A stretch of DNA of 64,000 nt, from positions 69,194 through 133,193 of the forward strand of contig QHTZ01000067.1 in the NCBI GenBank assembly GCA_003221005.1, in the 5' to 3' direction. Of this stretch, positions 13,443-25,328 are shown one piece after another. A program made the translations under genes and the position numbers. The notes under the pieces were generated by a model. It saw only the letters and a list, made by a program, of their open reading frames with translations, made no database searches and was not told the origin of the DNA. Positions within the stretch are counted from its first letter, which is position 1. Every line of letters starts with the position of its first letter. This DNA is from Gemmatimonadota bacterium. GTDB taxonomy: Bacteria > Gemmatimonadota > Gemmatimonadetes > Gemmatimonadales > GWC2-71-9.

Positions 13443-13561
13443 CTTCCCTCCAGAAGTGACGTGATAGGCGGCACACTCACACTTAAGGATAGAGTACGGA
13501 GACCTCCAAAGCGTCGCTGAACGCGTGATAAGTTGGAGGCCATCCCCCTCCAGGAGCGCCC

Positions 13562-13720
13562 ATGGCCTGGCACCTCCTCGGTACCCGCGACGAGCTGCTC
13601 ACTCGAGCCCTCGACTGCTGGAAGATTCTCGACCAGAACCGGGCGATGATGGACAAGCCGATGGAGCGCGCCGGCCGCAAGGGCAACCCGCTCGAGAACC
13701 CCGAGGAGGCGCTCGTATGA
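13562..13720 (+). CDS. 52-aa small ORF (MAWHLLGTRDELL..NPEEALV), absent from the ORF track
   Basis: AGGAG RBS before the ATG, GC3-rich codons, ATGA overlap with the next gene. Confidence 0.5.
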   Translation: MAWHLLGTRDELLTRALDCWKILDQNRAMMDKPMERAGRKGNPLENPEEALV

Positions 13721-14178
13721 GCAGGCGGATGGAGATCGCGCGGGCTTACGAGAAGGCGCTGTTCGCGGGCGACCGCGGCGGCGTCGGTCAGCGTTTCACG
13801 GACGACATCGTGTACTGGGTGGCGGGCGCAACCGGGCGCGCCGGGCGCCCGCCCATCGGCGGCGAGTGGAAGGGCCGGGAGCGGGTGCTGGACGCGCTCT
13901 GGAACCGCGAGGCCGGCCTGGGCGCGGCCGACTGGACCTCCGAGGACACGTGGCGGGAGTGGTACGAGGCGGACGACCGCGTGATCGTCGAGATCCGCGA
14001 ACGCAGCTGGCTCAAGAGCGACCTGCGCGACGTGATGGACCAGCGCACCTGCGTCGTGATCAGGTTCCGAGGCGACCGGATCTGCGAGATGCGGGAGTAC
14101 ACGGACAGCCACATCTACGAGGAGTTCTTGAAGCGGCACCGGAGCGAGCTGCCGAAATTCGCCGAGCGCAAGACGTAG
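13717..14178 (+). CDS. NTF2/SnoaL-like protein
   Basis: FTDDIVYW..WKGRE..DDRVIVE..FRGDRICEMREYTD. GAGGAGG RBS. Confidence 0.85.
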   Translation: MSRRMEIARAYEKALFAGDRGGVGQRFTDDIVYWVAGATGRAGRPPIGGEWKGRERVLDALWNREAGLGAADWTSEDTWREWYEADDRVIVEIRERSWLKSDLRDVMDQRTCVVIRFRGDRICEMREYTDSHIYEEFLKRHRSELPKFAERKT

Positions 14179-14249: not shown

Positions 14250-15479
14250 TTACGGGTCGAACCGGTCCAGCTTCCGGTCCCGCCGCCGCGCGAGCCAGTA
14301 GAGCGGCACGCCCAGGATCAGCGTCGCCCCTGAGGCGACCCACGCCTCAGCGATCCCCCGTGTGCGCGCGAGCCATCCCCATCCCGTCTGCCCGGCCACG
14401 CCACCCACGTTCGCGAAGAATGAATCGAGCGAGATGATCGTGGCTCGCTGCTGCGACGGGATGTGGGCGTTGAGATAGCCCTGCTTCACCGGCATCCCCA
14501 CGCCGAGTGCCATGCCATAGACGAGGTACAGCCCCACCACCACGTAGAAGTCCCGCAGCAGGCCGCACAGGACTACCGTGACCACCTGCACGACCACTGA
14601 CGCGATCAGCATTCCGGTGCGCGAGCGAACGACGCGCGACAGCGGCACGACAAGCGCATTGCCGGCGATCAGCGTGAGCGACGTGAGCGCGGCGATCACC
14701 CCCGACACCCACACCGCCTCCCGCCCCAGCAGGTCCAGGAAGTAGCGCTGCCAGCTGTAGAAGCCGAAGATCATAAAGCTCATCGAGACGAGCGACCCGA
14801 GCATCAGCGGCCGGACCACCGGGTGGTGCAAGCCGTAGCGCATGCCCTCCACGAACACGCGCCGCATCTCCGCCGGCACGCGCGACAACGCGAGCGCACG
14901 CGGGGTGTAGCCGAGCTCGCGCATCCCGAACCAGGCCAGCGCGAACAACGGCACCACGATTCCCGCCCGCACGAGGTAGGGCACGGCGAGATCGATCTGA
15001 CCCAGCAAGCCGCCGGCGAGGGTACCGACCAGCATCGCCGCGCCGAACGCCATCTGACCGCGCGCGAACACCGGCTCGAGCGGCGCGGTGTACCCCGTCG
15101 CCTTGAGAGCGTCGACCAGCCATGCGTCCACCGCGCCGGTGTAGAACGTGTAGCCGAGTCCCAGAAACACCGACACGGCGGCGAACGGCCAGAAGCCCCA
15201 CCCGAGCCGCGCGATCGCCACGTAGCAGAGTGTGGTGACGAACAAGGTGGCGAGGCACAACAGCAGCGAAATACGCCGCCCGAGGGTGTCGGCGACGACG
15301 CCGGTGGGGATCTCGAACAGGACGTTGCCCAGCGTGAACGCGGCATTCGTGAGCATCACCTGGAAGATGTCCAACCCCGCGTGGAGCTTGAACAGCGTGT
15401 CGATGCCCCAGATCAGGGACATCGCCAGGTTGAAGAGCCCGGTGATCAGCAGGTAGACGCGGATGATCTGTGCGCTCAC
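14250..15479 (-). CDS. MFS transporter
   Basis: Multiple TM helices, FEIPTGVVADTLGRR and IPSQQRATIIS. GTGA overlap with the SBP gene. Confidence 0.9.
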   Translation of the reverse strand: MSAQIIRVYLLITGLFNLAMSLIWGIDTLFKLHAGLDIFQVMLTNAAFTLGNVLFEIPTGVVADTLGRRISLLLCLATLFVTTLCYVAIARLGWGFWPFAAVSVFLGLGYTFYTGAVDAWLVDALKATGYTAPLEPVFARGQMAFGAAMLVGTLAGGLLGQIDLAVPYLVRAGIVVPLFALAWFGMRELGYTPRALALSRVPAEMRRVFVEGMRYGLHHPVVRPLMLGSLVSMSFMIFGFYSWQRYFLDLLGREAVWVSGVIAALTSLTLIAGNALVVPLSRVVRSRTGMLIASVVVQVVTVVLCGLLRDFYVVVGLYLVYGMALGVGMPVKQGYLNAHIPSQQRATIISLDSFFANVGGVAGQTGWGWLARTRGIAEAWVASGATLILGVPLYWLARRRDRKLDRFDP

Positions 15480-16345
15480 GGAACGTGCGCCTCGAGCCAG
15501 TCGTGCGCGATCGCCCGGATGTCCTGGTGCTGCACGTCGGCCAGCGCATTCAAGCGCCGCATCTCGTCGTCCGAGATCTTGCCGGTCAGCTCGCCGAGCG
15601 CGGCCGCCACCTCGGGATGGCGCCGCAACACCACTTCACGCGCGACGACCGCGGCTTCGTAGGGAGGGAAGTAATGCCGATCGTCTTCCAGGGCGACGAG
15701 ATCGAGCGCGGCGATCTGACCGTCCGTCGAGTTGCCGGCGATCATGTCCACCTTTCCGTCGGCGAGCGCGCGGTAGGTGAGTCCCAAGTCCATCGCGGTC
15801 GGAGGCGCGCGGAAGGCAAGCCTGTACACCTGCGACAGCCCGGCGAATCCGTCTGCGCGCTCCAGGAACTCGTAACCGAACCCCGCCTTCCACCGCGGCG
15901 CGACGCGCGCCACGTCGGAGATCCGCGTCAGGCCATATTGCCGCGCTTCCGTCCGGCGGATCAGAATCGCGAACGTGTTGTTGAAGCCGAACGGCGCGAG
16001 CCACCGCAGGCCGAAGCGTGCCGCATAGTCGCGCGCCACGACTCGCGCCACGCTGTCCCGATCGCTCACCGGGGGGTGCTTGAGCACCGCCGTGAACGCG
16101 GTGCCCGTGTACTCGGGATAGAGATCGATCTGTCCCGCGACGATCGCCTGATGACACACGAACGTGCCACCCAGGTGCAGGCGTCGCTCCACGGGCAGGT
16201 GCGCGCGCCGCTCGATCTGCTGCGCCACGAGCTCGGCGAGCAAGTCGGACTCCGTGAAGTTCTTGGCGCCCACGACGATCCGGTCGTGCCGGGCACACGA
16301 ACTTGCTGCGGAGAGCGCGAGCACCGCGGCGAGCAACGCGAGCAT
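15476..16345 (-). CDS. Glycine betaine/quaternary-amine ABC transporter substrate-binding lipoprotein (OsmF/OpuCC-like)
   Basis: VGAKNFTES, IDLYPEYTGT, GFNNTFAI and LEDDRHYFPPY. The start may extend to 16447. Confidence 0.9.
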   Translation of the reverse strand: MLALLAAVLALSAASSCARHDRIVVGAKNFTESDLLAELVAQQIERRAHLPVERRLHLGGTFVCHQAIVAGQIDLYPEYTGTAFTAVLKHPPVSDRDSVARVVARDYAARFGLRWLAPFGFNNTFAILIRRTEARQYGLTRISDVARVAPRWKAGFGYEFLERADGFAGLSQVYRLAFRAPPTAMDLGLTYRALADGKVDMIAGNSTDGQIAALDLVALEDDRHYFPPYEAAVVAREVVLRRHPEVAAALGELTGKISDDEMRRLNALADVQHQDIRAIAHDWLEAHVP

Positions 16346-16375
16346 GCCGGCCCGGCGTTTCCCGTGCCCTGAAGG

Positions 16376-16428
16376 GCCGGCTCGGCGTAAACGCGCGTCT
16401 TTAAAGACGCGACCTCGGCCGAGCCGGC
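16376..16428. repeat. Nested palindromic element
   Basis: 11-bp arms gccggctcggc (16376-16386) and gccgagccggc (16418-16428) enclose the perfect 18-bp palindrome cgcgtctttaaagacgcg (16394-16411). Confidence 0.75.
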
Positions 16429-16472
16429 GTTTCAACGCACGGACCACACGTGAGGCCAGGTGGGAGTCCTGC

Positions 16473-17102
16473 TCACCTTGCCCGCCACACCAGCCGCCGC
16501 TCGAGCAGCGCGAACAGGCCGTCCGCCGCCAGCGCCATCAGCGCCGCCGGGATCGCGCCCGCGAGGATCAAGGTGTCGTCCACCACCGCCACGCCGCGGA
16601 AGACGTAGACGCCGAGCCCGCCCGCGCCGATCGCGGCGCCGATCGTAGCCACGCCCACGCTCACGACCGTCGCGACGCGCACACCCGCGAGAATGACCGC
16701 CGCAGCGAGGGGCAGCTCCACCAGCCGCAGCAGCTCGGCGTCCGTCATCCCCATGCCGCGACCGGCTTCGCGGATGGCTGGGTCCACGCCCGCGATTCCC
16801 GTGTAGGTGTTGCGCACGATGGGGAGTAGCGCGTACACGATCAGCGCGGTGATCGCCGTCCAGAACCCGATGCCGAAGATCGGAATGAGGATCCCGAAGA
16901 GCGCGAGGCTCGGGATCGTCTGGAACACCCCCGCGAGCCCGAGCACGGGGGGCCGCCACGCGGGTCGGCGGGTGAGCACCACGCCGAGGGGAATCCCCAC
17001 GAGTGCCGCGGCACCGGTCGAGAGTACCACCAAGACGAGGTGCTGACCGACGAGACCGAGTGCCTCATGGGCGTTGCGCGCGAAGAACGCTACCAACCTC
17101 AT
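16473..17102 (-). CDS. Osmoprotectant-type ABC transporter permease
   Basis: QTIPSLAL, LLPIVRNTYTGI and the EAA loop EAGRGMGM..VELPLA. Confidence 0.92.
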   Translation of the reverse strand: MRLVAFFARNAHEALGLVGQHLVLVVLSTGAAALVGIPLGVVLTRRPAWRPPVLGLAGVFQTIPSLALFGILIPIFGIGFWTAITALIVYALLPIVRNTYTGIAGVDPAIREAGRGMGMTDAELLRLVELPLAAAVILAGVRVATVVSVGVATIGAAIGAGGLGVYVFRGVAVVDDTLILAGAIPAALMALAADGLFALLERRLVWRAR

Positions 17103-17851
17103 GCCGCCTCCAGGAAGCGGCGGACCTCGGGGTGCTCGTTGCGACGGAATTCGTCGGGGGTACCGAGGAACAGCAGCCGTCCCGCATGCATCAACCCGAT
17201 GCGCGTCCCCAGGAGCAGCCCCTCCCGCACGTCGTGGGTCACGAACACCATGCCCTTTCCCAGCCGCCCCTCGAGGGCGCGGAATTCCTGCTGCAGTTCG
17301 AAGCGCGTAATGGGATCGAGTGCGCCGAACGGCTCGTCCAGGAGCAGCAGCGGCGGGTCGGCAGCGAGCGCGCGCGCCACCCCGACCCGCTGCCGCTGAC
17401 CGCCCGAGAGCTGGTGCGGATAGCGTCCACCGAACGCCTCCGGGTCGAGCCCCACGAGCGCGAGCAGCTCGCGCACCCGGGCCGCGATCCGCTCTGGAGG
17501 CCAGCGTTCGAGCCGCGGCACGAGTCCCGCGTTCTCGGCCACCGTGAAATGCGGCAGCAGACCCACCTCCTGAATCACGTAGCCGATCCGCCGCCGCAGC
17601 GACGTGGGCTCGAGCGCCGCGGTCCGCTGCCCCGCCACCAACACCTCCCCCACCGAAGGCTCGAGCAGACGGTTGATGAGCTTAAGTGTGGTCGTCTTCC
17701 CAGAGCCGCTGCGGCCGAGGAGCACGAGGGTCTCTCCTGCACCCACAGTGAAGGACACGTCCCGGACGATCGGCAGGACCCGTCCCTCCTCCCCCGTCCC
17801 TCTTCCCGGCAACGTATAGCCGAGTCCCCGGACCTCGAGCACGGCGCTCAT
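17099..17851 (-). CDS. Osmoprotectant-type ABC transporter ATP-binding protein
   Basis: GRSGSGKT, LSGGQRQR and LLLDEPF. ATGA overlaps at both ends. Confidence 0.93.
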   Translation of the reverse strand: MSAVLEVRGLGYTLPGRGTGEEGRVLPIVRDVSFTVGAGETLVLLGRSGSGKTTTLKLINRLLEPSVGEVLVAGQRTAALEPTSLRRRIGYVIQEVGLLPHFTVAENAGLVPRLERWPPERIAARVRELLALVGLDPEAFGGRYPHQLSGGQRQRVGVARALAADPPLLLLDEPFGALDPITRFELQQEFRALEGRLGKGMVFVTHDVREGLLLGTRIGLMHAGRLLFLGTPDEFRRNEHPEVRRFLEAA

Positions 17852-18801
17852 TGCGCCCCCGCCCCCACCAGCACCATTTGAAAGCGGCCGTCTTCGCTCG
17901 TCCCGCGCCAGCGCTGCCCGAGGCCGGCATCTCGCAGGATTCGCAGGAACGTGTCGGCGTCGTACTTGTACGAGTGGTTCATTTCCAGCCGCTCGCCGGC
18001 ACCGAGGGTCAGGGACTCTCCGCCGAGCCGGGCGGCGACGTCGCGGGTCGCCCGGAAGTGCTTGGTGAGGGGATGCAGCCCGGGGACGCGCGCGTCCTCG
18101 CGGTCCTCGAACACGAGCTCGCCGTCGGCCTCGGTGATCCCGACGGCGTGGAGCGGCGCCCACGCGAAGCGCCGGTTCAGGGGGTTGTCATAGCCAGCGA
18201 CGGTGGCCTGGGCGGCGTAGATCTCGCCGTCCACGAGGAGCAGGTCGTCCCCGCGGAGCAGTTTCCGCAGGGCCCGCGTCTCGACCAGCGGATCGAATGC
18301 GCCGAGGGTGTTGCCCAGGAGCAAAATCAGGCGCGGCGGCGTTTCGGGATTAGGCGCCAGTGCAGTGAGGTGGTCGGTCCGTGTGAAGTCGGCCTTGACG
18401 CCCTGGGCGGGGAGCCCCGCGGCGACGGCGCCCTGACACGCGAGCTCGAGCAACGCCTGGCTCGTGTCTACGGGCGTGTAGGAGACGCGGATCCCGTGGG
18501 GTCGCAGCGCTTCGATGAGAAGCAGGTCCTTGTCCCCCTGCCCCGAGCCCAGGCTCAGGACCTCGAGCGGGCCGGGGGGTATGTAGCCAGCGAGGTCGGC
18601 GGCGGACCGAGCGATGAGCGAGCGCGACCGCACGTAGTTCCGGTAGGCGCCGTCCGAGCAGAGGGCGAGCCAGGCTCGGACGGACAGCGGAAACCAATAG
18701 AAGAATTTCTCCGGGAGCCGACGCGCGCGAAACGCGGCGACGAACTCGTCGGCGAGCGCGGTCTCGGTAAGTAGCGTGTGAGTGACGATCACGGAGTTCA
18801 A
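17848..18801 (-). CDS. EgtD-like (Methyltransf_33) SAM-dependent methyltransferase, diverged
   Basis: LPEKFFY, SLGSGQGDK, YTPVDTS, LLGNTLG, AGYDN and HSYKY follow the EgtD motif order. Start uncertain (18801 TTG or 18792 GTG). Confidence 0.8.
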   Translation of the reverse strand: MNSVIVTHTLLTETALADEFVAAFRARRLPEKFFYWFPLSVRAWLALCSDGAYRNYVRSRSLIARSAADLAGYIPPGPLEVLSLGSGQGDKDLLLIEALRPHGIRVSYTPVDTSQALLELACQGAVAAGLPAQGVKADFTRTDHLTALAPNPETPPRLILLLGNTLGAFDPLVETRALRKLLRGDDLLLVDGEIYAAQATVAGYDNPLNRRFAWAPLHAVGITEADGELVFEDREDARVPGLHPLTKHFRATRDVAARLGGESLTLGAGERLEMNHSYKYDADTFLRILRDAGLGQRWRGTSEDGRFQMVLVGAGAQ

Positions 18802-18811
18802 GAGTTACCGG

Positions 18812-18840
18812 TTGACGGGTCTGGCGGCAACCCGTATGCT
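18812..18840 (+). promoter_or_regulatory. sigma70-type promoter of the peptide operon
   Basis: TTGACG-N17-TATGCT, 51 nt upstream of the peptide ATG. Confidence 0.7.
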
Positions 18841-18891
18841 ACGTTTCGTCTGCCGTCGTCTGATTTCCACGTAAAGACGGAGGATATTCGC

Positions 18892-18984
18892 ATGCAGATC
18901 GTCGAGACGCAGGAGCTCGTGCCCACCTGTCATCGGCCTGAGGTCGTGGAGACGAGCGAGCTGCAGCCAACCTGTCACTCCTGA
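18892..18984 (+). CDS. Putative RiPP precursor peptide MQIVETQELVPTCHRPEVVETSELQPTCHS (30 aa)
   Basis: GGAGG 8 nt before the ATG. Two repeats differing at synonymous positions. First gene of an operon containing a DUF692 enzyme. Confidence 0.85.
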   Translation: MQIVETQELVPTCHRPEVVETSELQPTCHS

Positions 18985-18998
18985 CGCAGGGCGGCTGG

Positions 18999-20123
18999 AT
19001 GCAAGAGGGGGCCCGGACCGATTTCGGGCCCCTTTCGCGTTTCCTGGGCACGGAGGCGCGACTGGGGTTCGGGGGCTGGGCGGTGGGCGGCGCGGGCTGG
19101 GGGACGCCAGACGACACGCACGAGCGCGAGGCCGCGATCCGGCGCGCCGTCGAGCGGGGCGTCACGTTCTTCGACACCGCGCCGACGTACGGTGACGGCG
19201 AGTCCGAGCGACTGCTGGGCCGCGCGCTCGGAACCGTGCGCGAGCGGGTGGCGATCGCCACCAAGGTCGGCCCGCGCGACGATCCACGCGCCTCACTCGA
19301 AGCGTCGCTGCGCCGCCTCACCACGGACTGCGTGGACCTGGTGCAGCTGCACGAAGCGCTCGAACGGTGGGAATGGCAACTCGAAGCGCTCTATCGGCTG
19401 CAGCTCGAGGGAAAGGCCCTCGCGATCGGGCTCTGCAACGCCACTCACCTGCAGGTCGCGCGGGCGCTGACCATCGCTCCCCTGGCGACGTATCAGGGCA
19501 CCTACAACCTGTTCGATCGCGACGTAGAAGAGCGCGAGCTGCCACTGTGCCGCGAACGTGGCCTCGCGTTCCTGGCATTCCGGCCGCTCGCCGCAGGCCT
19601 GCTCACCGGCAAGTACCGGGAGCCTCCCGCCTTCCCGGACGATGACCACCGCCGCAAGGTCTATTGGTTCAAGGGGAAGGAGTTCGAGCGCCGCCAGCGG
19701 ACGATCGAGCGGCTGCGGCGCGTTGCGCGCCGGGAGGGCGTGTCGCTGCTCGAGCTCGCCCTGGGGTGGCTGCGCGCGCGGCCGGGGGTGAACATGGTCC
19801 TGGTGGGCGCGAGAAACCGGTCGCAGGTCGAGGAGGCGTTCGTCCCGGGCGTCGGGCCGCTGACAGCGGACACGGTGAACGAGATCGACCTCATAGTCCG
19901 CGAGGTCTTCCGCCCGGGCCGCGGCACGGCGCAACTCGAGCGGGCGGCCGCGACGTGGGGAGAGCGCGAGCGCTTCATCGCGGCGCGGCTCGACGGGAAG
20001 ACTCGCTACGAAGCGATCGCCGCCGAGTGGACCGACCGCGGCGAACAGCCGATGATCGCGGCGCAGATCAAGGTGTTCGTGGACCAGTTGGCTGAGCAAC
20101 GGTTGGTTGACGCCGACGGCTGA
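18999..20123 (+). CDS. Aldo-keto reductase with a C-terminal PqqD/RRE-like winged-helix extension
   Basis: AKR tetrad in FFDTAPTYG, IATK and VQLH. Extra ~60-aa tail RFIAARLDGKTRYEAIA..IKVFVDQLAEQRLV. Confidence 0.85.
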   Translation: MQEGARTDFGPLSRFLGTEARLGFGGWAVGGAGWGTPDDTHEREAAIRRAVERGVTFFDTAPTYGDGESERLLGRALGTVRERVAIATKVGPRDDPRASLEASLRRLTTDCVDLVQLHEALERWEWQLEALYRLQLEGKALAIGLCNATHLQVARALTIAPLATYQGTYNLFDRDVEERELPLCRERGLAFLAFRPLAAGLLTGKYREPPAFPDDDHRRKVYWFKGKEFERRQRTIERLRRVARREGVSLLELALGWLRARPGVNMVLVGARNRSQVEEAFVPGVGPLTADTVNEIDLIVREVFRPGRGTAQLERAAATWGERERFIAARLDGKTRYEAIAAEWTDRGEQPMIAAQIKVFVDQLAEQRLVDADG

Positions 20124-20129
20124 CCGCTG

Positions 20130-20915
20130 ATGGCTCTCATGGTCGGGGCGTTCTACAACCCTCAGCTCGGCGCTGAGCTCGCTGCGGCGAAGGGCATCGA
20201 CCACCTCGCCATGGCCGACCCGCCGGCAGCACACGATGCGCACTGGCCCACCATCCGCGAGCGCTACACGCTGCTGCTCCACGACTACCTCGGCCAGCTC
20301 TCCGAGCCGCTCGATGAACGCTCGATCGAGCGTGCCCGCTCCCTCGCTACGTTGTACCGCACACCGTGGATCGCCGAGCATTTCCAGTGCCTGCACACGG
20401 AAGACGGGCGCTACAACATCAACTACGTGTTCCCGCCGCTCTACACCGACGAGTTTCTGGAGCGTTTCGTCGCCAACGCACGCGCGCTCCAGGCGCGGCT
20501 CGAGCAGCCGCTCGTGATGGAGAACATCCCCGGCTTCTTCGACGTCAAGGCGAGCCAGCTCCCGGAGCCTGTCTGGCTCGCGCGTTTCTTCGACGCGACC
20601 GAGGTCGGCTTTCTGCTCGACCTGCCGCACGTTTGGCTCGAGGCCCACTACCGCGGCATGAAGCCTGAAGCGTGGCTCGCGCAATTCCCGCTCGAGCACG
20701 TAGTCGAGCTGCACGTGGCCGGCGTCGAGGAGGACGAGGACCTGCGAGGTCCCTGGATCGCGCCCACCGCCCCGTCGGAGGCCATGCTCGCGTTTCTGGC
20801 GCACGCCGTCACTCGCTGTCCCCGGGCCAAGGCTGTCACGTTCGACGCATTTTCGCCGTCGCTCACCGCCGACGTGCTGTTCCGGAGCGTTGAACGGATC
20901 CGGGGGGCGCTGTGA
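20130..20915 (+). CDS. DUF692-family multinuclear non-haem iron oxidative enzyme (MNIO), atypical
   Basis: LLLH, WIAEH, LVMEN, GFLLDLPH and VELHVAG appear in DUF692 order. Confidence 0.85.
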   Translation: MALMVGAFYNPQLGAELAAAKGIDHLAMADPPAAHDAHWPTIRERYTLLLHDYLGQLSEPLDERSIERARSLATLYRTPWIAEHFQCLHTEDGRYNINYVFPPLYTDEFLERFVANARALQARLEQPLVMENIPGFFDVKASQLPEPVWLARFFDATEVGFLLDLPHVWLEAHYRGMKPEAWLAQFPLEHVVELHVAGVEEDEDLRGPWIAPTAPSEAMLAFLAHAVTRCPRAKAVTFDAFSPSLTADVLFRSVERIRGAL

Positions 20916-21682
20916 CCGACCGGGCACTCCAGGACCTGGTGCTGCGCGCGCTGGCCGACGCCTCGTTCCGGGCGTCATCCGCCTGGCGGCAGCGTGCGCT
21001 CGCGGACCCCGCGAAGGTGGAGCGGTTCGCACGCTTCCTCGCGCGGCACTTCTACTACGAGCGGATCGTGCACTTCTTCAAGTACTCGGGGGCGCTGGCG
21101 CGTGTGACCGGCCGGCGACCAGAGGGGACGCTCCGCGGTGCCGAATTCGAAGCGCTGCTCCCCGTGGTCGTACTCGGCAGTCGGCAGACGGCTCGCGCGG
21201 TCGCCGATCTCGTCGTGCGCGAAGTGAAGGGCGGCGCCCCCGTGGCCTCGATCCCATATCGCGACGACTTGCTGCGCTACGAGGCGGCGATGATGGTCGC
21301 GGAGGCGGGGCCGAGGGTGTGGCGAGAGAACGGGAAGGGGGAAGAGGGAAGAGGAACGGGTGTCCCGGAAACCGCTGAAGGAACAGTGCTGCTGGATCTC
21401 GCCTACGACCTACCGGCGGTCCTGCCGCAGCTGCTCCAGCCGTGGACCGAGGTGCCGCAGGCGCCGCCGCGACCGGTGCGACTCCTCGTCGCGCGCTCGC
21501 CCCGCGGCCGGGTCGCGGTCGCTCGCACCGACAGCGCGGTGGCGCGCGTGGTCGAGCTCGCGGACGGCCGCCGCACCCTCGAAGAGCTCGCACGCGCGGC
21601 CGGGTTGCCGCGGAACGAGCTCGAGGCCACGCTCGCCGGGCTCACCGACCTCGGCGCCGTTCGCTTCGGGACGGGCAGCTGA
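20912..21682 (+). CDS. Putative MNIO partner protein (DUF2063-like N-terminus, C-terminal RRE-like winged helix)
   Basis: GTGA-coupled to the MNIO. Contains DLLRYE and a tail VELADGRRTLEELA..LAGLTDLGAV. Confidence 0.7.
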   Translation: MTDRALQDLVLRALADASFRASSAWRQRALADPAKVERFARFLARHFYYERIVHFFKYSGALARVTGRRPEGTLRGAEFEALLPVVVLGSRQTARAVADLVVREVKGGAPVASIPYRDDLLRYEAAMMVAEAGPRVWRENGKGEEGRGTGVPETAEGTVLLDLAYDLPAVLPQLLQPWTEVPQAPPRPVRLLVARSPRGRVAVARTDSAVARVVELADGRRTLEELARAAGLPRNELEATLAGLTDLGAVRFGTGS

Positions 21683-21693
21683 GCGCCGTGGCG

Positions 21694-22515
21694 TTACGCG
21701 GGCTTTCGCGCGCGCACGAACGCGCCCATGATCCTGCCGCTCACCTCGCGCGCCAGGACATCGACGTCGAGCCCGGCCCCAGCCAGCACGGCCCGCGCAT
21801 CCTCGAAGCTGTAGATCCGGGTCGGCTCGATCCCGACGTTTTCGAAGCCGTTCGCGCTAAGCAGCGCCTTGAACTCTTCCTCCTCGAGGGCGCCGGCCAC
21901 GCATCCCACCCACAGCTCCATGCTGCGGCGCACCTCACGCGGGATCTCCCCCCGCACCACGACGTCGGAGACGGCGAACCGGCCACCGGGCTTGAGCACG
22001 CGAAACGCCTCGGCCAGCACCCGCCGCTTATCGGCGGCGAGGTTGATGACGCAGTTCGAGATGATGACGTCCACCGACGCGTCCGGAAGAGGAATGCGCT
22101 CGATGTCCCCTTTCAAGAACTCGACGTTCTCGACCCCGGCCTTCCGCTGGTTTTCGCGCGCCAGGGCGAGCATCTCGTCGGTCATGTCGAGCCCGTACGC
22201 CTTGCCGGTCGGCCCCACGCGCCGGGCGGAGAGCAGCACGTCGATGCCCCCGCCGGAGCCGAGGTCGAGCACCACTTCTCCCGGGAGCAGCTCGGCGAGC
22301 GCAGTTGGGTTGCCGCAGCCGAGCGAAGCGAGCACGGCTTGCTCGGGGAGGGACGCGGTCTCAGCAGCCTCGTACAGGTTGGATGTGACGGGATCGCAGC
22401 CGCCGCTCGCTGCGGCGCCGCCGCAACACGAGCTTCCCTGCCCGTGCAGCACGCGCAGCGCCGCCTCTCCGTACTTCGCCCGTACGGTGTCCTTGATCAC
22501 GGTGTCGTCGGTCAT
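21694..22515 (-). CDS. arsM: Arsenite methyltransferase
   Basis: VRAKYG..SSCCG, SLGCGNP, LDLGSGGGID, ISNCVINL and LWVGCVAGAL. GGAGG RBS. Confidence 0.9.
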   Translation of the reverse strand: MTDDTVIKDTVRAKYGEAALRVLHGQGSSCCGGAAASGGCDPVTSNLYEAAETASLPEQAVLASLGCGNPTALAELLPGEVVLDLGSGGGIDVLLSARRVGPTGKAYGLDMTDEMLALARENQRKAGVENVEFLKGDIERIPLPDASVDVIISNCVINLAADKRRVLAEAFRVLKPGGRFAVSDVVVRGEIPREVRRSMELWVGCVAGALEEEEFKALLSANGFENVGIEPTRIYSFEDARAVLAGAGLDVDVLAREVSGRIMGAFVRARKPA

Positions 22516-22552: not shown

Positions 22553-22581
22553 TTGACAAGAGGGGTACCCCTGGCGATACT
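22553..22581 (+). promoter_or_regulatory. sigma70-type promoter for rpsU-csp
   Basis: TTGACA-N17-GATACT. The -35 overlaps the inverted repeat gtcaacc-ac-ggttgac (22542-22557). Confidence 0.7.
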
Positions 22582-22678
22582 GTGCGCGAGCGCAATGAAC
22601 CAGAGACTGTTCCGAGGACCTGGGCTTCGCCCGTGGTCCTCGTTCGTTTCTGGAGGCTTTCACTGGAAGCGAGGCCGC

Positions 22679-22876
22679 ATGCAGGTGACGCTGGGCGAGA
22701 ACGACCGACTGGACTTCGTCCTGAAGAAGTTTCGCCGTCAGATCGCCAAGGCCGGGCTGTTCCAGGACATGAAGCGCAAGCGCTTCTTCGAGGGCCCGCG
22801 CGCTCAGCGACGGCGGAAGGACAAGGCAGCGGCCCGCCGCAAGGCGAAATCCGCGCACCGTCGCGAACACCAATAA
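22679..22876 (+). CDS. rpsU: 30S ribosomal protein bS21
   Basis: [30 protein letters not shown]; 65 aa, basic. Confidence 0.85.
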
Positions 22877-22893
22877 GTAAGGAGTGGCATCAG

Positions 22894-23103
22894 ATGGCAC
22901 GCATCACCGGTACCGTGAAGTGGTTCAACGACGCGAAGGGCTTCGGCTTCATCACGCCCGAGAACGGCGAAAAGGACTGCTTCGTGCATCACACCGCGAT
23001 CCAGGCGGAAGGTTTCAAGACACTGGCTGAAGGTCAGCGCGTCGAGTTCGACGTCGTGCAGGGGCAAAAGGGCCCAGCGGCGCAGAACGTCGTCAAGCTC
23101 TAA
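22894..23103 (+). CDS. Cold-shock protein (CspA family)
   Basis: [19 protein letters not shown] and GQKGPAA. AAGGAG RBS. Confidence 0.97.
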
Positions 23104-23126
23104 GCCCGACCCGGTACCAGAAAACG

Positions 23127-23156
23127 AACGGCGCCATCCGTGAGGACGGCGCCGTT
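23127..23156. terminator. Hairpin terminator between convergent genes
   Basis: aacggcgcc..ggcgccgtt stem 23 nt after the csp stop. Confidence 0.7.
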
Positions 23157-23176
23157 GGTGCTTTAGGGAACAACCC

Positions 23177-24784
23177 CTAGCTCACCATCTGCGCGGTGGC
23201 ATGGGGGATGACCTTCAGGAACGCCGCCACGACGCGTTCGGACCACCACGCCCGGCAGTTCATGATCTCCTCGAGCGCGCGCTCCGCGCTCACGGCCGCA
23301 TGCTCCGTGCGCGAGTTTGTGAGCGAATCGTAGACATCCAGGATGCCGACGATCTGCGCGGACAGCGGGATCTCGTCTCCCTTGAGCCGATCGGGATACC
23401 CGCTCCCGTCGCAACGCTCATGATGCCAGCGGATGATGGGCTTCAGGTCCCACGGAAACTCGACGTTCCCGAGCAGCTCGATCCCCCAGATAGGATGCAT
23501 CTGCAAGAGTTCGCGCTCGGCGCGGGTGAGCGGCCCGGGCTTGTGGAGAATCTCGTGGGGGACGCGTACCTTGCCGACGTCATGGAGATAGGCGCCGAGC
23601 AGAATGGTCGTCTCCTCCTGGTCGTTTAGCCCGAGGGCCCGCGCCACGGCGACCGCGTTTTGCGCCACGCGCTCGCAATGACCGAACGTGCAGCCGTCGC
23701 TCGATTCGATCGACTGGCCCCACGCGCGCACCACCGCCAGATACGTGGCTTCGAGCTCGGCCAACTTGCCGCCTACGTAGACCAGGTCCGCTCGGGCGTC
23801 CAGTTGGCGGAATAGGCCGTGGGCAACGTTGAGCACCCCGAGCGCGTCCTGGTTCCGGCCCATCGCCTGATGCAGGATGGCCAATTCGCGGGAGGCCTCC
23901 GCCTCGCCGAGGACGGAGCCCGCCGCGACGGCCAGCTCGATCGCCGCCAGGAACCGCGCCTCCGCGAGCGCCGGACGGCCCGTCTCGCGGTACACCATCC
24001 CGAGCACCCGATAAGCCCCGGCCTTGGGCCCACGCGCCCCGAGGTGATCGAACACGGCGAGCGCTTCCTCGGCCTTCTGGCGCGCGTCCTCGAACCGCTG
24101 GCGCATCACGTCCACCTCGGCGTGATTGACGAGACAGAGTCCGCGCAGATGGAGGTCGCCGACCCGCTCGGCGAGGGACCGGGCCTCGCGGAAATAGCAG
24201 TCTGCCGCATGGAACCGTCCCCGATCCGCGCTCACCATCCCCAGGTTGTGGTACGCGATCGCGCACCCCTGCGCGTCACCGGAGCCGCGGTACGCCTCGA
24301 GGGACCGCTCGTAGCGCGCGATGGCCTCGCGCAGCTCGCCCTGGATGTTCGCGAGGATGCCGAGATTCTGCTCGACGCGAGCGCGCAGCTCCTTCCTCGA
24401 TCCGCCGAGCTCGAGCGCCTCGAGAAACGTCAGCCGGGCGTCCTCGACCTTCCCGGCAGCCAGGTGGAGGCCGCCCAACGTATTCAACGCTTCCGCGGCA
24501 AGTAGCTCGTTGCCGATCTGCCGCGCGATCTCGTAGCTCCTGCGGCACAACGCGTGGGCCTGACCGGACTCATTCCCGTGGTGCCTGAGGATCGCAAGCC
24601 GCCGCAGCGCTTCGGCCAGCACCGTGTGCTCCCCGGCCTGCTCCGCGGCGGCGATGGCGGATCCGAAGCGCGCAATCGCTTCGGGGATCCGTCCCGCGCG
24701 CTCCTGCTGCCGCGCCTCGTGCAGCAGGTCCGCGCTGCGACGCATCACGCCGAGGGAGCGGCGCGGGGTCGCCCGGTCGGACAC
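23177..24784 (-). CDS. TPR-repeat HD-GYP phosphodiesterase
   Basis: N-terminal TPRs, then GHCERVA, LHDVGK and HHERCDGSGYP. Start uncertain. Confidence 0.9.
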   Translation of the reverse strand: MSDRATPRRSLGVMRRSADLLHEARQQERAGRIPEAIARFGSAIAAAEQAGEHTVLAEALRRLAILRHHGNESGQAHALCRRSYEIARQIGNELLAAEALNTLGGLHLAAGKVEDARLTFLEALELGGSRKELRARVEQNLGILANIQGELREAIARYERSLEAYRGSGDAQGCAIAYHNLGMVSADRGRFHAADCYFREARSLAERVGDLHLRGLCLVNHAEVDVMRQRFEDARQKAEEALAVFDHLGARGPKAGAYRVLGMVYRETGRPALAEARFLAAIELAVAAGSVLGEAEASRELAILHQAMGRNQDALGVLNVAHGLFRQLDARADLVYVGGKLAELEATYLAVVRAWGQSIESSDGCTFGHCERVAQNAVAVARALGLNDQEETTILLGAYLHDVGKVRVPHEILHKPGPLTRAERELLQMHPIWGIELLGNVEFPWDLKPIIRWHHERCDGSGYPDRLKGDEIPLSAQIVGILDVYDSLTNSRTEHAAVSAERALEEIMNCRAWWSERVVAAFLKVIPHATAQMVS

Positions 24785-24791
24785 CCAGCCC

Positions 24792-25328
24792 TCACCAGGC
24801 GATGGCATAGTCGGAAAAGTGACTGAGGTTGGCGGTGACCGCCTGAGCCGACGGGTCGTCGACCGACGGTAGGTACTCCAGGATGGACCCGGAGGCGTTC
24901 AAGTAGGCGATCCGCTTCGCGGCGCTGATCGCGCTGCAGTTGGCGTAGCTCATGGTCAGCGACGCCGGCTGCTGGAACGTGAGGCCTTCAGGTTGGAAGA
25001 CGACCCGGTTGAGGGTGTCCGACGGCGCTACCGCCGTGATGCTTACGGAGTCGCTCAGGGCACCCGGCGGGACCGAGAGTGTCTGCCCCCCCACCACGAG
25101 CGCTCCGCCCGCGGGACCGATCGTCTGCGTGACCGAATCGGCGGCGATGGGGGAGCACCTGAGCAGGCCCGCGCTCTGCTGGGCGGTTTGCACCAGCGAG
25201 TCGAGGAGGTCTCCCTGTATCGTCGGCGCTCGGGCATTCACGCCGAGGGGCGAGCGATCTCCACAGCTCAGGACGAGCACGGTGGCACCGCCGAGCAGCG
25301 CGGAGCGCACGAAGGCAGGGACGTTCAT
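24792..25328 (-). CDS. Lipoprotein with a ZU5-like beta domain
   Basis: Lipobox VLSC, then IGPAGG..LSVPPGAL, FQPEGLTF and HFSDYAIAW. Confidence 0.65.
   Translation of the reverse strand: MNVPAFVRSALLGGATVLVLSCGDRSPLGVNARAPTIQGDLLDSLVQTAQQSAGLLRCSPIAADSVTQTIGPAGGALVVGGQTLSVPPGALSDSVSITAVAPSDTLNRVVFQPEGLTFQQPASLTMSYANCSAISAAKRIAYLNASGSILEYLPSVDDPSAQAVTANLSHFSDYAIAW

Follow-up and report, generated by a model that had tools for sequence, protein, structure and literature searches.

A conserved MNIO peptide gene cluster of Gemmatimonadota and Acidobacteriota and a possible ribosomal route to ergothioneine- or selenoneine-like betaines

Ergothioneine and selenoneine are major redox metabolites. 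To our knowledge, all known routes to them start from free histidine and proceed via EgtB, OvoA, EanB or SenA-type enzymes. The other systems closest to the one considered here are pathways for peptides made by ribosomes and modified after translation (RiPPs) that employ multinuclear oxidases dependent on non-haem iron (the MNIO, or DUF692, family), namely those for 3-thiaglutamate (TglA/TglH/TglI), for aminopyruvatide (ApyH/ApyI) and for bufferins, oxazolins and methanobactins (BufB, HvfB, MbnB). The present locus has features of both groups. It is situated on contig QHTZ01000067.1 of a Gemmatimonadota bacterium (Gemmatimonadales; assembly GCA_003221005.1), in a stretch of 64,000 nt that was analysed as a whole and is referred to below as the window; positions are those of the window unless preceded by a locus name. 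The locus encodes a Cys-His repeat peptide, an MNIO, a partner protein, an EgtD-family (Methyltransf_33) methyltransferase of a distinct subfamily, here called MT33, and an ATP-binding cassette (ABC) importer. The data presented below are consistent with an MNIO-dependent RiPP route to ergothioneine, selenoneine or a closely analogous betaine, a reading in which all of the chemistry and the product identity are inferred and to which a probability of about one-half is assigned.

Genes were assigned to families by Pfam and NCBIfam profile searches of the open reading frames (ORFs) of the window. It is apparent that they form two divergent operons. The rightward operon (+ strand) comprises the precursor peptide gene (18892..18984), an aldo-keto reductase (AKR) gene (18999..20123; PF00248, 202.2 bits), the MNIO gene (20130..20915; PF05114, 94.3 bits versus a cut-off of 25) and the partner gene (20912..21682), which overlaps the MNIO gene by 4 nt. 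The leftward operon (− strand) comprises, in order of transcription, the genes for MT33 (17848..18801; PF10017, 85.6 bits versus a cut-off of 23), an ABC ATPase of the ProV/OpuCA type (17099..17851; PF00005, 122.7 bits; TIGR01186 proV, 258.6 bits, below the cut-off of 326.6), an ABC permease (16473..17102; PF00528, 72.8 bits), an OpuAC-family substrate-binding protein (SBP; 15476..16447; PF04069, 203.5 bits) and a putative exporter of the major facilitator superfamily (MFS; 14250..15479; Pfam MFS_1, 72.8 bits). All nine genes and the 30-residue peptide ORF listed in an earlier note on this DNA were found where that note had placed them, and its statement that three of the four junctions of the left operon overlap was borne out: the overlaps are of 4 nt each (MFS/SBP, permease/ATPase and ATPase/MT33), and the SBP/permease gap is 25 nt. 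The start of the ATPase gene was reset by reading the sequence, the ATG at 17851-17849 overlapping the MT33 stop codon as ATGA.

To determine how far this gene set is conserved, a genome scan was performed with one genome per species, and the best 80 of 110 MNIO relatives were taken. The resulting loci are mostly from Gemmatimonadales, with 4 from Gemmatimonadaceae, 7 from Terriglobales and 2 from metagenome-assembled genomes (MAGs) labelled Actinomycetota. By tblastn synteny, the partner was found in 75 of the 80 loci, MT33 in 72, the AKR in 69, the SBP in 52 and the MFS transporter in 50. A peptide ORF is present in 74, and in the six loci without one the contigs start ≤1.7 kb upstream of the MNIO gene. 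The conserved core is the peptide, the MNIO, the TglI-like partner and MT33, usually together with the quaternary-amine ABC importer. The earlier note had asked whether the peptide, the AKR, the methyltransferase and both transporters recur beside the MNIO; the peptide and MT33 do, as does the partner, and usually the ABC genes, and the AKR and the MFS transporter proved to be accessories.

At least four gene arrangements of the core were observed across Gemmatimonadota, Acidobacteriota and soil metagenomes, and MT33, peptide, MNIO and partner are found together in Gemmatimonadales, Gemmatimonadaceae and Terriglobales loci. In the Acidobacteriota genome G520 the arrangement is divergent, with partner, MNIO and peptide genes on one side (transcribed from peptide to partner), an amino-acid permease gene and an MFS gene between, and MT33, ATPase, permease and SBP genes transcribed away in that order. 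In genome G805, peptide-MNIO-partner lies on one contig and MT33-ATPase-permease-SBP on another; in six metagenome loci these seven genes are all on one strand, in the same order. Locus L073 encodes the ABC system as an ATPase and a fusion of substrate-binding domain (SBD) and permease. The stretch itself is contained in soil metagenome runs of 15 studies.

Among 401 Gemmatimonadota genomes, an MNIO orthologue (E≤1e–40) was found in 20, belonging to 7 of 147 genera; within the genus of the window, only the window's genome, of three, has it. Matches to MT33 in the same 401 genomes are bimodal, with 21 genomes at E≤2.1e–88 and 27 at 2.2e–15 to 7.1e–11. The 21 MT33 genomes consist of all 20 with the MNIO and of G042, in which the contig breaks off 963 bp past MT33, after the peptide gene and inside the AKR gene. 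The linkage of methyltransferase and MNIO proposed in the earlier note is thereby upheld. No second, EgtD-like match was found in the 21 genomes. In the Acidobacteriota sample, the MNIO orthologue occurs in 2 of 401 genomes (2 of 10 in the order of G520). Unpublished genomes are included in these counts, namely G182 (MNIO, MT33 and SBP counts) and G057 and G157 (SBP counts); G402, the source of locus L067 and of its 12-residue repeat described below, is also unpublished. No conclusion rests on unpublished genomes alone. The two MAGs labelled Actinomycetota (L066, L067) carry a Gemmatimonadota-like cluster, with an MNIO 71–72% identical, an AKR and three to four peptide cores, which could be due to misbinning or to horizontal transfer.

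The precursor of the window, MQIVETQELVPTCHRPEVVETSELQPTCHS, has 30 residues and two (I/V)VExxELxPTCH units. Across the relatives the unit takes the form (I/V)VExxE(L/V)xP(T/S/G/A)CH and is present twice in Gemmatimonadales, three times in Terriglobales and three to four times in L066–L073. The Terriglobales peptides end exactly at ...PTCH, and in L067 a 12-residue unit is repeated in tandem with no residues between the copies. Residues E5, L9, P11, C13, H14, E17, E20, T21, E23, L24, P26, C28 and H29 are invariant in 23 two-repeat peptides. A GGAGG is situated a few nucleotides 5′ of the ATG in the 40 upstream sequences inspected from the relatives' loci; in the window a GGAGGA is found at 18879-18884 (+ strand). 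The precursor has no signal peptide, and an NCBIfam search of the peptides matched no model. The conserved short ORF beside homologous MNIOs that the earlier note had called for is therefore present, in the 74 loci given above.

Short ORFs are easily over-interpreted, and hairpin or terminator-like structures follow some of the single-core ORFs described below. It might be supposed, then, that the enzymes act on something else and that the small ORF is no substrate but has arisen by chance or encodes a leader peptide with a regulatory role. This is extremely improbable. The variable sites of the two-repeat ORFs are distributed 13/8/25 over codon positions 1/2/3 (51 unique DNAs; 61 ORFs), the amino-acid sequence is conserved across phyla, and the number of repeats varies from one to four while xPxC/UH (U, selenocysteine) stays constant. 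The apparent selenocysteine recoding is conserved, and the cluster encodes an RRE-type partner (RRE, RiPP recognition element) and an RRE-like AKR tail. A chance ORF was set aside on the amino-acid-level conservation, and a leader-peptide attenuator likewise on the conservation data.

Contigs of a relative approximately 90% alike were observed over the peptide ORF (18892-18962) in soil metatranscriptome runs X19 and X20, at depths of 69 and 66, and over the MT33 gene at a depth of 2–3; contig depth cannot rank genes, stretches lacking RNA cover say nothing either way and DNA may contaminate metatranscriptome libraries, so that the difference, taken from contigs only, is a hint. Expression of the precursor in soil may be high.

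In some lineages the core Cys codon is replaced by TGA. A metagenome scan was carried out with the MNIO of G520, and the best 80 of 376 relatives were taken. An in-frame TGA at the core Cys codon was found in 17 loci, consisting of two genomes (G520 and G805) and 15 of the 80 metagenome loci. In all 17, the TGA is followed by the His codon CAC, and then by AAC and a stop codon or directly by a stop codon. The ORF 5′ of the MNIO gene in G520 reads MMKDLLLEQVATEELVPT-TGA-CAC-AAC-stop, and that of G805, whose MNIO is 70% identical, MEKLELEVVVTEELVPT-TGA-CAC-AAC-stop. Two leader families can be distinguished, ending ...VPT-U-H-N-stop and ...LVPT-U-H-stop, and the selenocysteine (Sec)-type precursors have a single core. 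In L100 (~700-1050), two precursors lie in tandem 5′ of one MNIO gene, one of the Sec type (...EELAPT-U-HN) and one of the Cys type (...EEIQPTCHN). Of the remaining metagenome loci, 49 have Cys-type precursors only and 16 have none found, most of the latter with <1.4 kb upstream; no recognizable precursor was seen in the 330 translated bases 5′ of the L099 MNIO gene. L128, flagged as Sec-type by a looser regular expression, was spurious.

The TGA codons are interpreted here as Sec because of the conserved TGA-His context and because Sec machinery is present. SelA scores above its cut-off in G520 and in G805 (the latter searched for SelA only) and SelB in G520, and both proteins are encoded in the window's genome and in the Terriglobales genome G401. 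A hairpin lies 3′ of the TGA in every Sec-type locus. Its minimum free energy (mean −15.6 kcal mol−1, 14 unique sequences) does not differ from that of the stretches 3′ of 98 Cys-type terminal cores (−15.4 kcal mol−1; Mann–Whitney p=0.33), so the hairpin alone does not discriminate Sec from Cys loci. An Rfam search of L087 and L088 gave no selenocysteine insertion sequence (SECIS) family and chance-level matches only. Neither the full set of 15 downstream stretches of Sec-type loci nor the 8 of the UHN type yielded any pairs in RNAalifold, the MAFFT register being inconsistent; on the 7 UH-stop stretches an 8-bp consensus hairpin was obtained, with 2 pairs changed on both sides. The data are compatible with a SECIS element, which is not demonstrated by them.

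The MNIO belongs to an uncurated subfamily. Residues H51, H84, E131, D164 and H195, which show no variation in 148 unique sequences, coincide in alignment with the conserved H/H/E/D/H of structure 3bww; by analogy with the MbnB and TglH structures, they are taken to be the iron ligands. The window MNIO scores far below the cut-offs of the named equivalogs (ApyH, 105.2 bits versus 400; BufB, 86.3 versus 310; HvfB, 51.5 versus 360; ChrH, 17.4 versus 600), the MNIOs of G520 and L078 are likewise below all of them, and the TglH-type structure 8hci_D is matched by phmmer at 8.9e–9. The partner was modelled with a mean predicted local distance difference test (pLDDT) score of 90.7, as an N-terminal helical domain and a C-terminal sheet with three helices. 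Its best Foldseek match is TglI (8hi7_A; E 3.2e–05, TM-score 0.53), followed by NGO1945 (3dee; 3.1e–04). ApyI is its sole NCBIfam match, a weak one (25.5 bits versus 200), and NGO1945_C is matched at 19.4 bits, against a cut-off of 27. With the 4-nt gene overlap, this fold agrees with the earlier description of the protein as a coupled MNIO partner.

These comparisons bear on one alternative, in which the end product is the peptide itself or a short fragment of it, acting as a metal binder of the bufferin or methanobactin kind. The MNIO would then make a 5-thio(seleno)oxazole or an oxazolone-thioamide from each Cys or Sec, with the neighbouring His as an extra ligand, and MT33 would be a peptide methyltransferase, acting for instance on the N-terminus or on a His. 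Lewis et al. in 2021 reportedly described the conversion of a Sec-containing RiPP precursor to a selenooxazole, which would be a precedent. By analogy with methanobactin chemistry, two cores per peptide would provide an N2S2 site. BufB, a maker of thiooxazoles, is the first or second best NCBIfam match of the MNIOs of the window, G520 and L078 (82–94 bits). Most characterized MNIOs act on Cys (table of PMC12452194), and repeated Cys cassettes are present in oxazolins and bulbicupramide. Even so, this alternative is considered unlikely. Bufferin precursors have a Sec-pathway signal peptide, which is lacking here; by fold E value, the partner resembles TglI more closely than it does DUF2063; and the Sec-type precursors are single-core. 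MFS and OpuAC-type systems generally carry small molecules. Furthermore, a metal-binding peptide would not explain why the cluster is so strictly paired with an EgtD-family enzyme in which the α-carboxylate binders are retained, nor why it is paired with a quaternary-amine importer matching the egt-linked site; both pairings are described below.

MT33 is the sole PF10017 gene in the window's genome. It scores 61.6 bits against the EgtD equivalog TIGR03438, for which the cut-off is 290.9 (G520, 64.5 bits; L078, 66.4 bits), and a profile of 15 MT33 sequences aligns to Mycobacterium tuberculosis EgtD (7scf) at 1.8e–18. In EgtD, Y56, Y206 and S284 bind the carboxylate, N166 the α-amine, and E282 and T213 lie on the imidazole side (PMC8593015, in part). 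The counterparts of the first three, Y53, Y204 and S277, are invariant in 116 unique MT33 sequences. In the same set, the position of N166 is occupied by Ala (98), Gly (10), Ile (3) or Val (2), that of E282 by Asn (73), Ser (29) or Gly (3), and that of T213 by Asn. By this alignment, MT33 keeps the carboxylate-binding residues of EgtD and has lost the determinants for the α-amine and the imidazole. The loss of N166 and E282 would fit a substrate other than plain histidine. The ...C/U-H ends of the Terriglobales precursors and of one Sec group would provide a free His carboxylate that the Tyr/Tyr/Ser set of MT33 could bind. At least 863 clusters of MT33 relatives exist at E≤1e–40; their public labels are 'hypothetical', 'uncharacterized SAM-dependent methyltransferase' and, assigned automatically, 'L-histidine N(alpha)-methyltransferase'.

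The substrate site of the importer was compared with that of the ergothioneine importer EgtU. The solved structures nearest to the window SBP are OpuBC/OpuCC and EgtUC (1e–47 to 1e–57), and its similarity to choline/carnitine binders is about the same as that to EgtUC; for the SBD of L073, EgtUC is the best match (1.2e–60), ahead of all others. The ergothioneine contacts of Streptococcus pneumoniae EgtU were mapped from PMC9732360 (in part). Eight of the 14 SpEgtUC contacts are identical in the window SBP (K242, T275, T296, N339, E375, R379, D381 and Y443), among them the carboxylate triad K242/T296/R379 and the acidic E375, and the changes are I243N, G244F, T274G, F293Y, Y341F and Y419N.

In four Gemmatimonadota genomes, a homologous ABC system adjoins canonical egt genes. 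The respective loci are L095 (G084), L096 (G260), L097 (G135) and L098 (G051). EgtB (361–418 bits versus 360), an EgtA-like gene and EgtD adjoin it in G084, G135 and G051; in G260 EgtD adjoins it and EgtB is elsewhere in the genome. The EgtD proteins in all four score 334–380 bits versus 290.9. For the ABC proteins of G084, G135 and G051, identity is 51–61% (ATPase), 46–61% (permease) and 44–55% (SBP). The 14-position predicted site KNFGTYTNFERDNY is identical in MNIO-linked SBPs (window, G520, G805, L125 and others) and in egt-linked L096 and L097, even though its carriers across the two groups are only 49–57% identical overall, and a second site signature, KPFATYTNYDRDYY, is common to MNIO-linked L073 and egt-linked L098. 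In Gemmatimonadota, it seems customary for producer and importer to be coupled. No match to EgtB (TIGR03440) or to the FGE-sulfatase family (PF03781) was found in the window's genome (93.9% complete), and none to EgtB above the cut-off in G520.

The pattern looks like a non-orthologous displacement, in which an EgtD relative and the importer would have been retained and EgtB and EgtA replaced by the peptide, the MNIO and the partner; it is this that favours a ribosomal route to an ergothioneine- or selenoneine-like betaine. The same pattern would also be expected if the peptide were the chalcogen donor and not the source of the His: MT33 would make hercynine, or a similar betaine, out of a free amino acid, and to this compound the MNIO would couple the peptidyl Cys or Sec in place of EgtB and its γ-Glu-Cys or Cys donor, and the core His would serve binding or catalysis. 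Such a donor role suits the exchange of Cys and Sec, and no excision of His from the peptide would be needed. The invariant His after Cys/Sec and the C-terminal ...C/U-H ends would go unexplained, however, and free His is an unlikely substrate of an MT33 that lacks N166 and E282 in all 116 unique sequences. Known MNIOs modify the bound peptide itself (PMC12452194, in part), and no conserved C-S lyase was found among the cluster neighbours. A donor peptide is accordingly judged decidedly improbable.

The importer raises a further question. SBP relatives at E≤1e–50 are present in 180 of the 401 Gemmatimonadota genomes, also where the MNIO and MT33 are absent; neither the Terriglobales loci nor L066–L072 have ABC genes within 10 kb, and MNIO chemistry is very diverse as a family. 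The cluster might therefore make a different RiPP, with MT33 as a tailoring enzyme unrelated to thiohistidines and the importer as an incidental scavenger of osmoprotectants or ergothioneine. We regard this as quite improbable, in that the ABC genes accompany MT33 and the MNIO in two phyla and at least four different arrangements, one of the latter being a single co-directional operon, and the ligand-site signature is identical at the low overall identity given above. G401, of the Terriglobales, keeps a 51% identical SBP elsewhere in its genome.

The earlier note had left two products open, a modified metal-binding peptide and an excised, methylated thio-histidine-like betaine, exported and then re-imported by the ABC system. 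Of these, the latter is better supported, since MT33 orthologues track the MNIO and egt-adjacent importers have the same predicted site; the absence of a signal peptide and the small-molecule-type transporters speak for a small-molecule product too. The route to such a betaine may be pictured as follows. The precursor would supply one to four units, each with a recognition stretch, (I/V)VExxEL, and a core, xP(T/S)-Cys-His, or Sec-His in some lineages. The MNIO, tethered to the peptide by the TglI-like partner, would use O2 to shift or attach the Cys or Sec chalcogen to the imidazole of the adjacent His and would also detach it from the Cys skeleton. In Gemmatimonadales, the AKR with its RRE-like tail might reduce a carbonyl by-product still on the peptide. 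General peptidases would release the modified His, and MT33, presumably still binding its free α-carboxylate, would N-methylate it to the betaine, which could be exported by the MFS transporter where there is one and re-imported by the EgtU-like ABC system. In its most specific form, that ergothioneine, or selenoneine where Sec is encoded, is made from a Cys-His or Sec-His peptide by MNIO-catalysed chalcogen transfer and finished by a re-tooled EgtD homologue, the proposal is put forward tentatively. The gene set, its conservation and co-occurrence, the exchange of Cys and Sec, the altered MT33 pocket and the importer site common with egt clusters are computed observations.

Several results weigh against a betaine product, in addition to the BufB matches and the broad distribution of SBP relatives already given. 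Most precursors have one residue after the His, or internal cores, so that cleavage on both sides would be needed, and neither a conserved dedicated peptidase nor a C-S lyase was found among the cluster neighbours. The changed pocket of MT33 could equally accommodate a substrate that is not an amino acid, and L080 has no MT33 within 3.9 kb upstream. The overlap between the 21 MT33 genomes and the 27 EgtD-like genomes is 0, with a chance expectation of ~1.4, and canonical EgtD was confirmed in only 4 of those 27. The specificity determinants of EgtU, G244 and F293, are Phe and Tyr in the window SBP, and that the egt-linked importers bind ergothioneine is suggested by gene neighbourhood alone. 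Finally, four genomes of one genus have 66–70% identical SBPs without the MNIO or MT33; the tie of the left operon to the MNIO drawn in the earlier note is upheld for MT33 and not, in the form given there, for the importer, whose close relatives also occur apart from both.

Residues D59, Y64, K89 and H118 of the AKR, which we take to be the catalytic tetrad of that family, are invariant in 26 sequences. The C-terminal tail (approximately residues 301–374; 19899-20120, + strand) is weakly PqqD-like (RRE-like) by profile similarity. The window tail itself scores 16.6 bits against PF05402, below the cut-off of 23.4, and 21 of 25 homologue tails match PqqD at E≤0.1 (best, 2.7e–05), in keeping with the RRE-like tail described earlier. 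The AlphaFold model (pLDDT 90.2), in which the tail is confidently folded, has tail helices at 311–366, four in number and with hardly any sheet; Gemmatimonadaceae tails have ~20 extra residues where strands would lie. A predicted AKR-peptide complex scored 0.01, which counts neither for nor against binding. No AKR gene is present in any of the 7 Terriglobales loci, in L012 and L046 (in both of which the gene for the MNIO comes directly after that for the peptide), in either G520 or G805, or in any of the 15 metagenome loci of the Sec type. The AKR is a Gemmatimonadales accessory and dispensable, and the earlier idea that MNIO and AKR act in turn on the motif is not supported in that form, many loci having an MNIO and no AKR. 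The MFS gene is similarly confined to Gemmatimonadales-type loci (tblastn matches of ≥70% identity in the 50 loci above), with no tblastn match in the Terriglobales loci or in L066–L073.

Extra genes were observed between the AKR, MNIO and partner genes in some loci of different subclades (L048:8825-9976, L057:10783-11730, L061:10791-11822, L010:3111-4313, L003:10782-11480). Judged by eye, without a family-library scan, they encode an α/β-hydrolase-like protein with a signal-peptide-like N-terminus, β-propeller-like proteins, a 400-residue protein and a membrane protein. They were set aside as parts of the system, none being conserved across the family.

The two operons are separated by a spacer of 90 bp (18802-18891), the length the earlier note had estimated. 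It contains one σ70-like site, TTGACG-17-TATGCT (18812..18840, + strand; 9/12 matches), versus a shuffle mean of 0.1, which agrees with the promoter proposed before the peptide gene. The spacer is also conserved at the DNA level 5′ of the peptide gene (L005, L009, L016, L034, L044 and others), and an out-of-frame translation of it, ...YRLTG.TATR..., recurs across loci, spanning the −35/−10-like hexamers. This conservation suggests a conserved promoter or operator.

An ArsM-type methyltransferase gene, of uncertain membership in the system, follows the partner gene on the opposite strand (21694..22515, − strand; NF008823, 365.8 bits versus 263). ArsM-like genes also lie beside the cluster in 3 of the 7 Terriglobales loci and in three metagenome loci (these six being L074, L076, L078:7670-8572, L114, L152 and L174), preceded in L078 by a MarR gene, and 7.5 kb from it in G805 (L089:2596-3276); the other Gemmatimonadales loci have no such flank. 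The enzyme could S- or Se-methylate the product or belong to an unrelated arsenic metabolism. On the other side of the window locus, a SnoaL-like gene (13525-14178, + strand; PF12680, 28.7 bits) recurs 5′ of the MFS gene in many Gemmatimonadales loci, at 56–81% identity and a variable distance, which is probably plain synteny. The region 22580-24808, judged by eye from translations only, contains a cold-shock protein ORF (~22900-23103, + strand), an S21-like small basic ORF and a gene for a TPR/HD-domain-like protein (23177-24808, − strand), all of which appear unrelated to the cluster.

The combination of genes, which the earlier note did not recall from any description, is likewise absent from the literature searched: no paper was found joining an MNIO with an AKR, EgtD or ergothioneine, and nothing of the kind appears among the MNIO papers retrieved to October 2026. 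In its main text, the landscape paper on MNIOs (PMC12452194) has 0 mentions of Gemmatimonad*, aldo*, methyltransferase or Acidobacteri*, and its supplements might list the cluster. Neither the MNIO subfamily nor the partner, MT33 or the peptides are covered by a model in NCBIfam (June 2026). If the proposed route is correct, it would represent a third, RiPP-based logic for thiohistidine biosynthesis, and no MNIO system before it would have had its selenium genetically encoded. The chemistry of MNIOs would come to include the formation of C-S and C-Se bonds on imidazole, the choice of S or Se would be genetically programmable, and the hundreds of soil-metagenome 'EgtD' annotations without an EgtB partner would be explained. 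Even with another product, the cluster would define a class of MNIO RiPPs, widespread and uncurated, in which the natural exchange of Cys and Sec at the modified residue is a built-in mechanistic probe. In either case, a minimal set would need few genes, those for the peptide, the MNIO, the partner and the methyltransferase.

In comparison with known systems, the Sec-type precursors resemble that of the SbtA/SbtM thio(seleno)oxazole system, in which Sec is encoded in a short precursor where relatives have Cys and the maturase is a radical SAM (S-adenosylmethionine) enzyme and not an MNIO. Bufferins, oxazolins and methanobactins have in common with the present cluster MNIOs oxidizing Cys in repeated motifs; they differ from it in that here the BufB score is <310, signal peptide and DoxX are both lacking, the partner does not qualify as a genuine DUF2063 protein and the transporters are others. 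The aminopyruvatide system is close in that ApyH is the best NCBIfam match of the window MNIO and ApyI the sole match of the partner, both far under their cut-offs of 400 and 200; no P450 or radical-SAM neighbours are present here, and the target of ApyH is a C-terminal Asp (PMC12452194, in part).

Canonical EgtA–E and SenABC likewise have an EgtD-family methyltransferase, an importer family with the identical predicted site beside egtB/egtD in related genomes, and S and Se versions (selenoneine is mentioned in PMC13188914, in part). They are distinguished by their sulfoxide or selenoxide synthases, for neither EgtB nor OvoA nor a SenA-type enzyme is found here; in addition, MT33 fails the EgtD equivalog and is without N166 and E282, and the chalcogen, and probably the His, would be peptide-encoded. 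With EgtUV the importer has in common an OpuAC-type SBD and conserved K242/T296/R379, E375, N339, D381 and Y443; the window SBP differs in its Phe at G244, Tyr at F293, Asn at Y419 and Asn at I243 and in being a separate protein, and in L073 the SBD is fused N-terminally to the permease. The pathway for 3-thiaglutamate differs in that its Cys is PEARL-added, whereas here the Cys is encoded in a repeated xPxCH core, and no PEARL enzyme or TglG-like protease was found among the annotated cluster neighbours; MNIO identity is low, and the present system has in addition a methyltransferase of the EgtD family, an importer for betaines and variants with Sec. It is nevertheless like the present cluster in its MNIO with a TglI-fold partner, in Cys chemistry at or near the C-terminus and, if the proposed route is correct, in the release of a small molecule made on a peptide scaffold.

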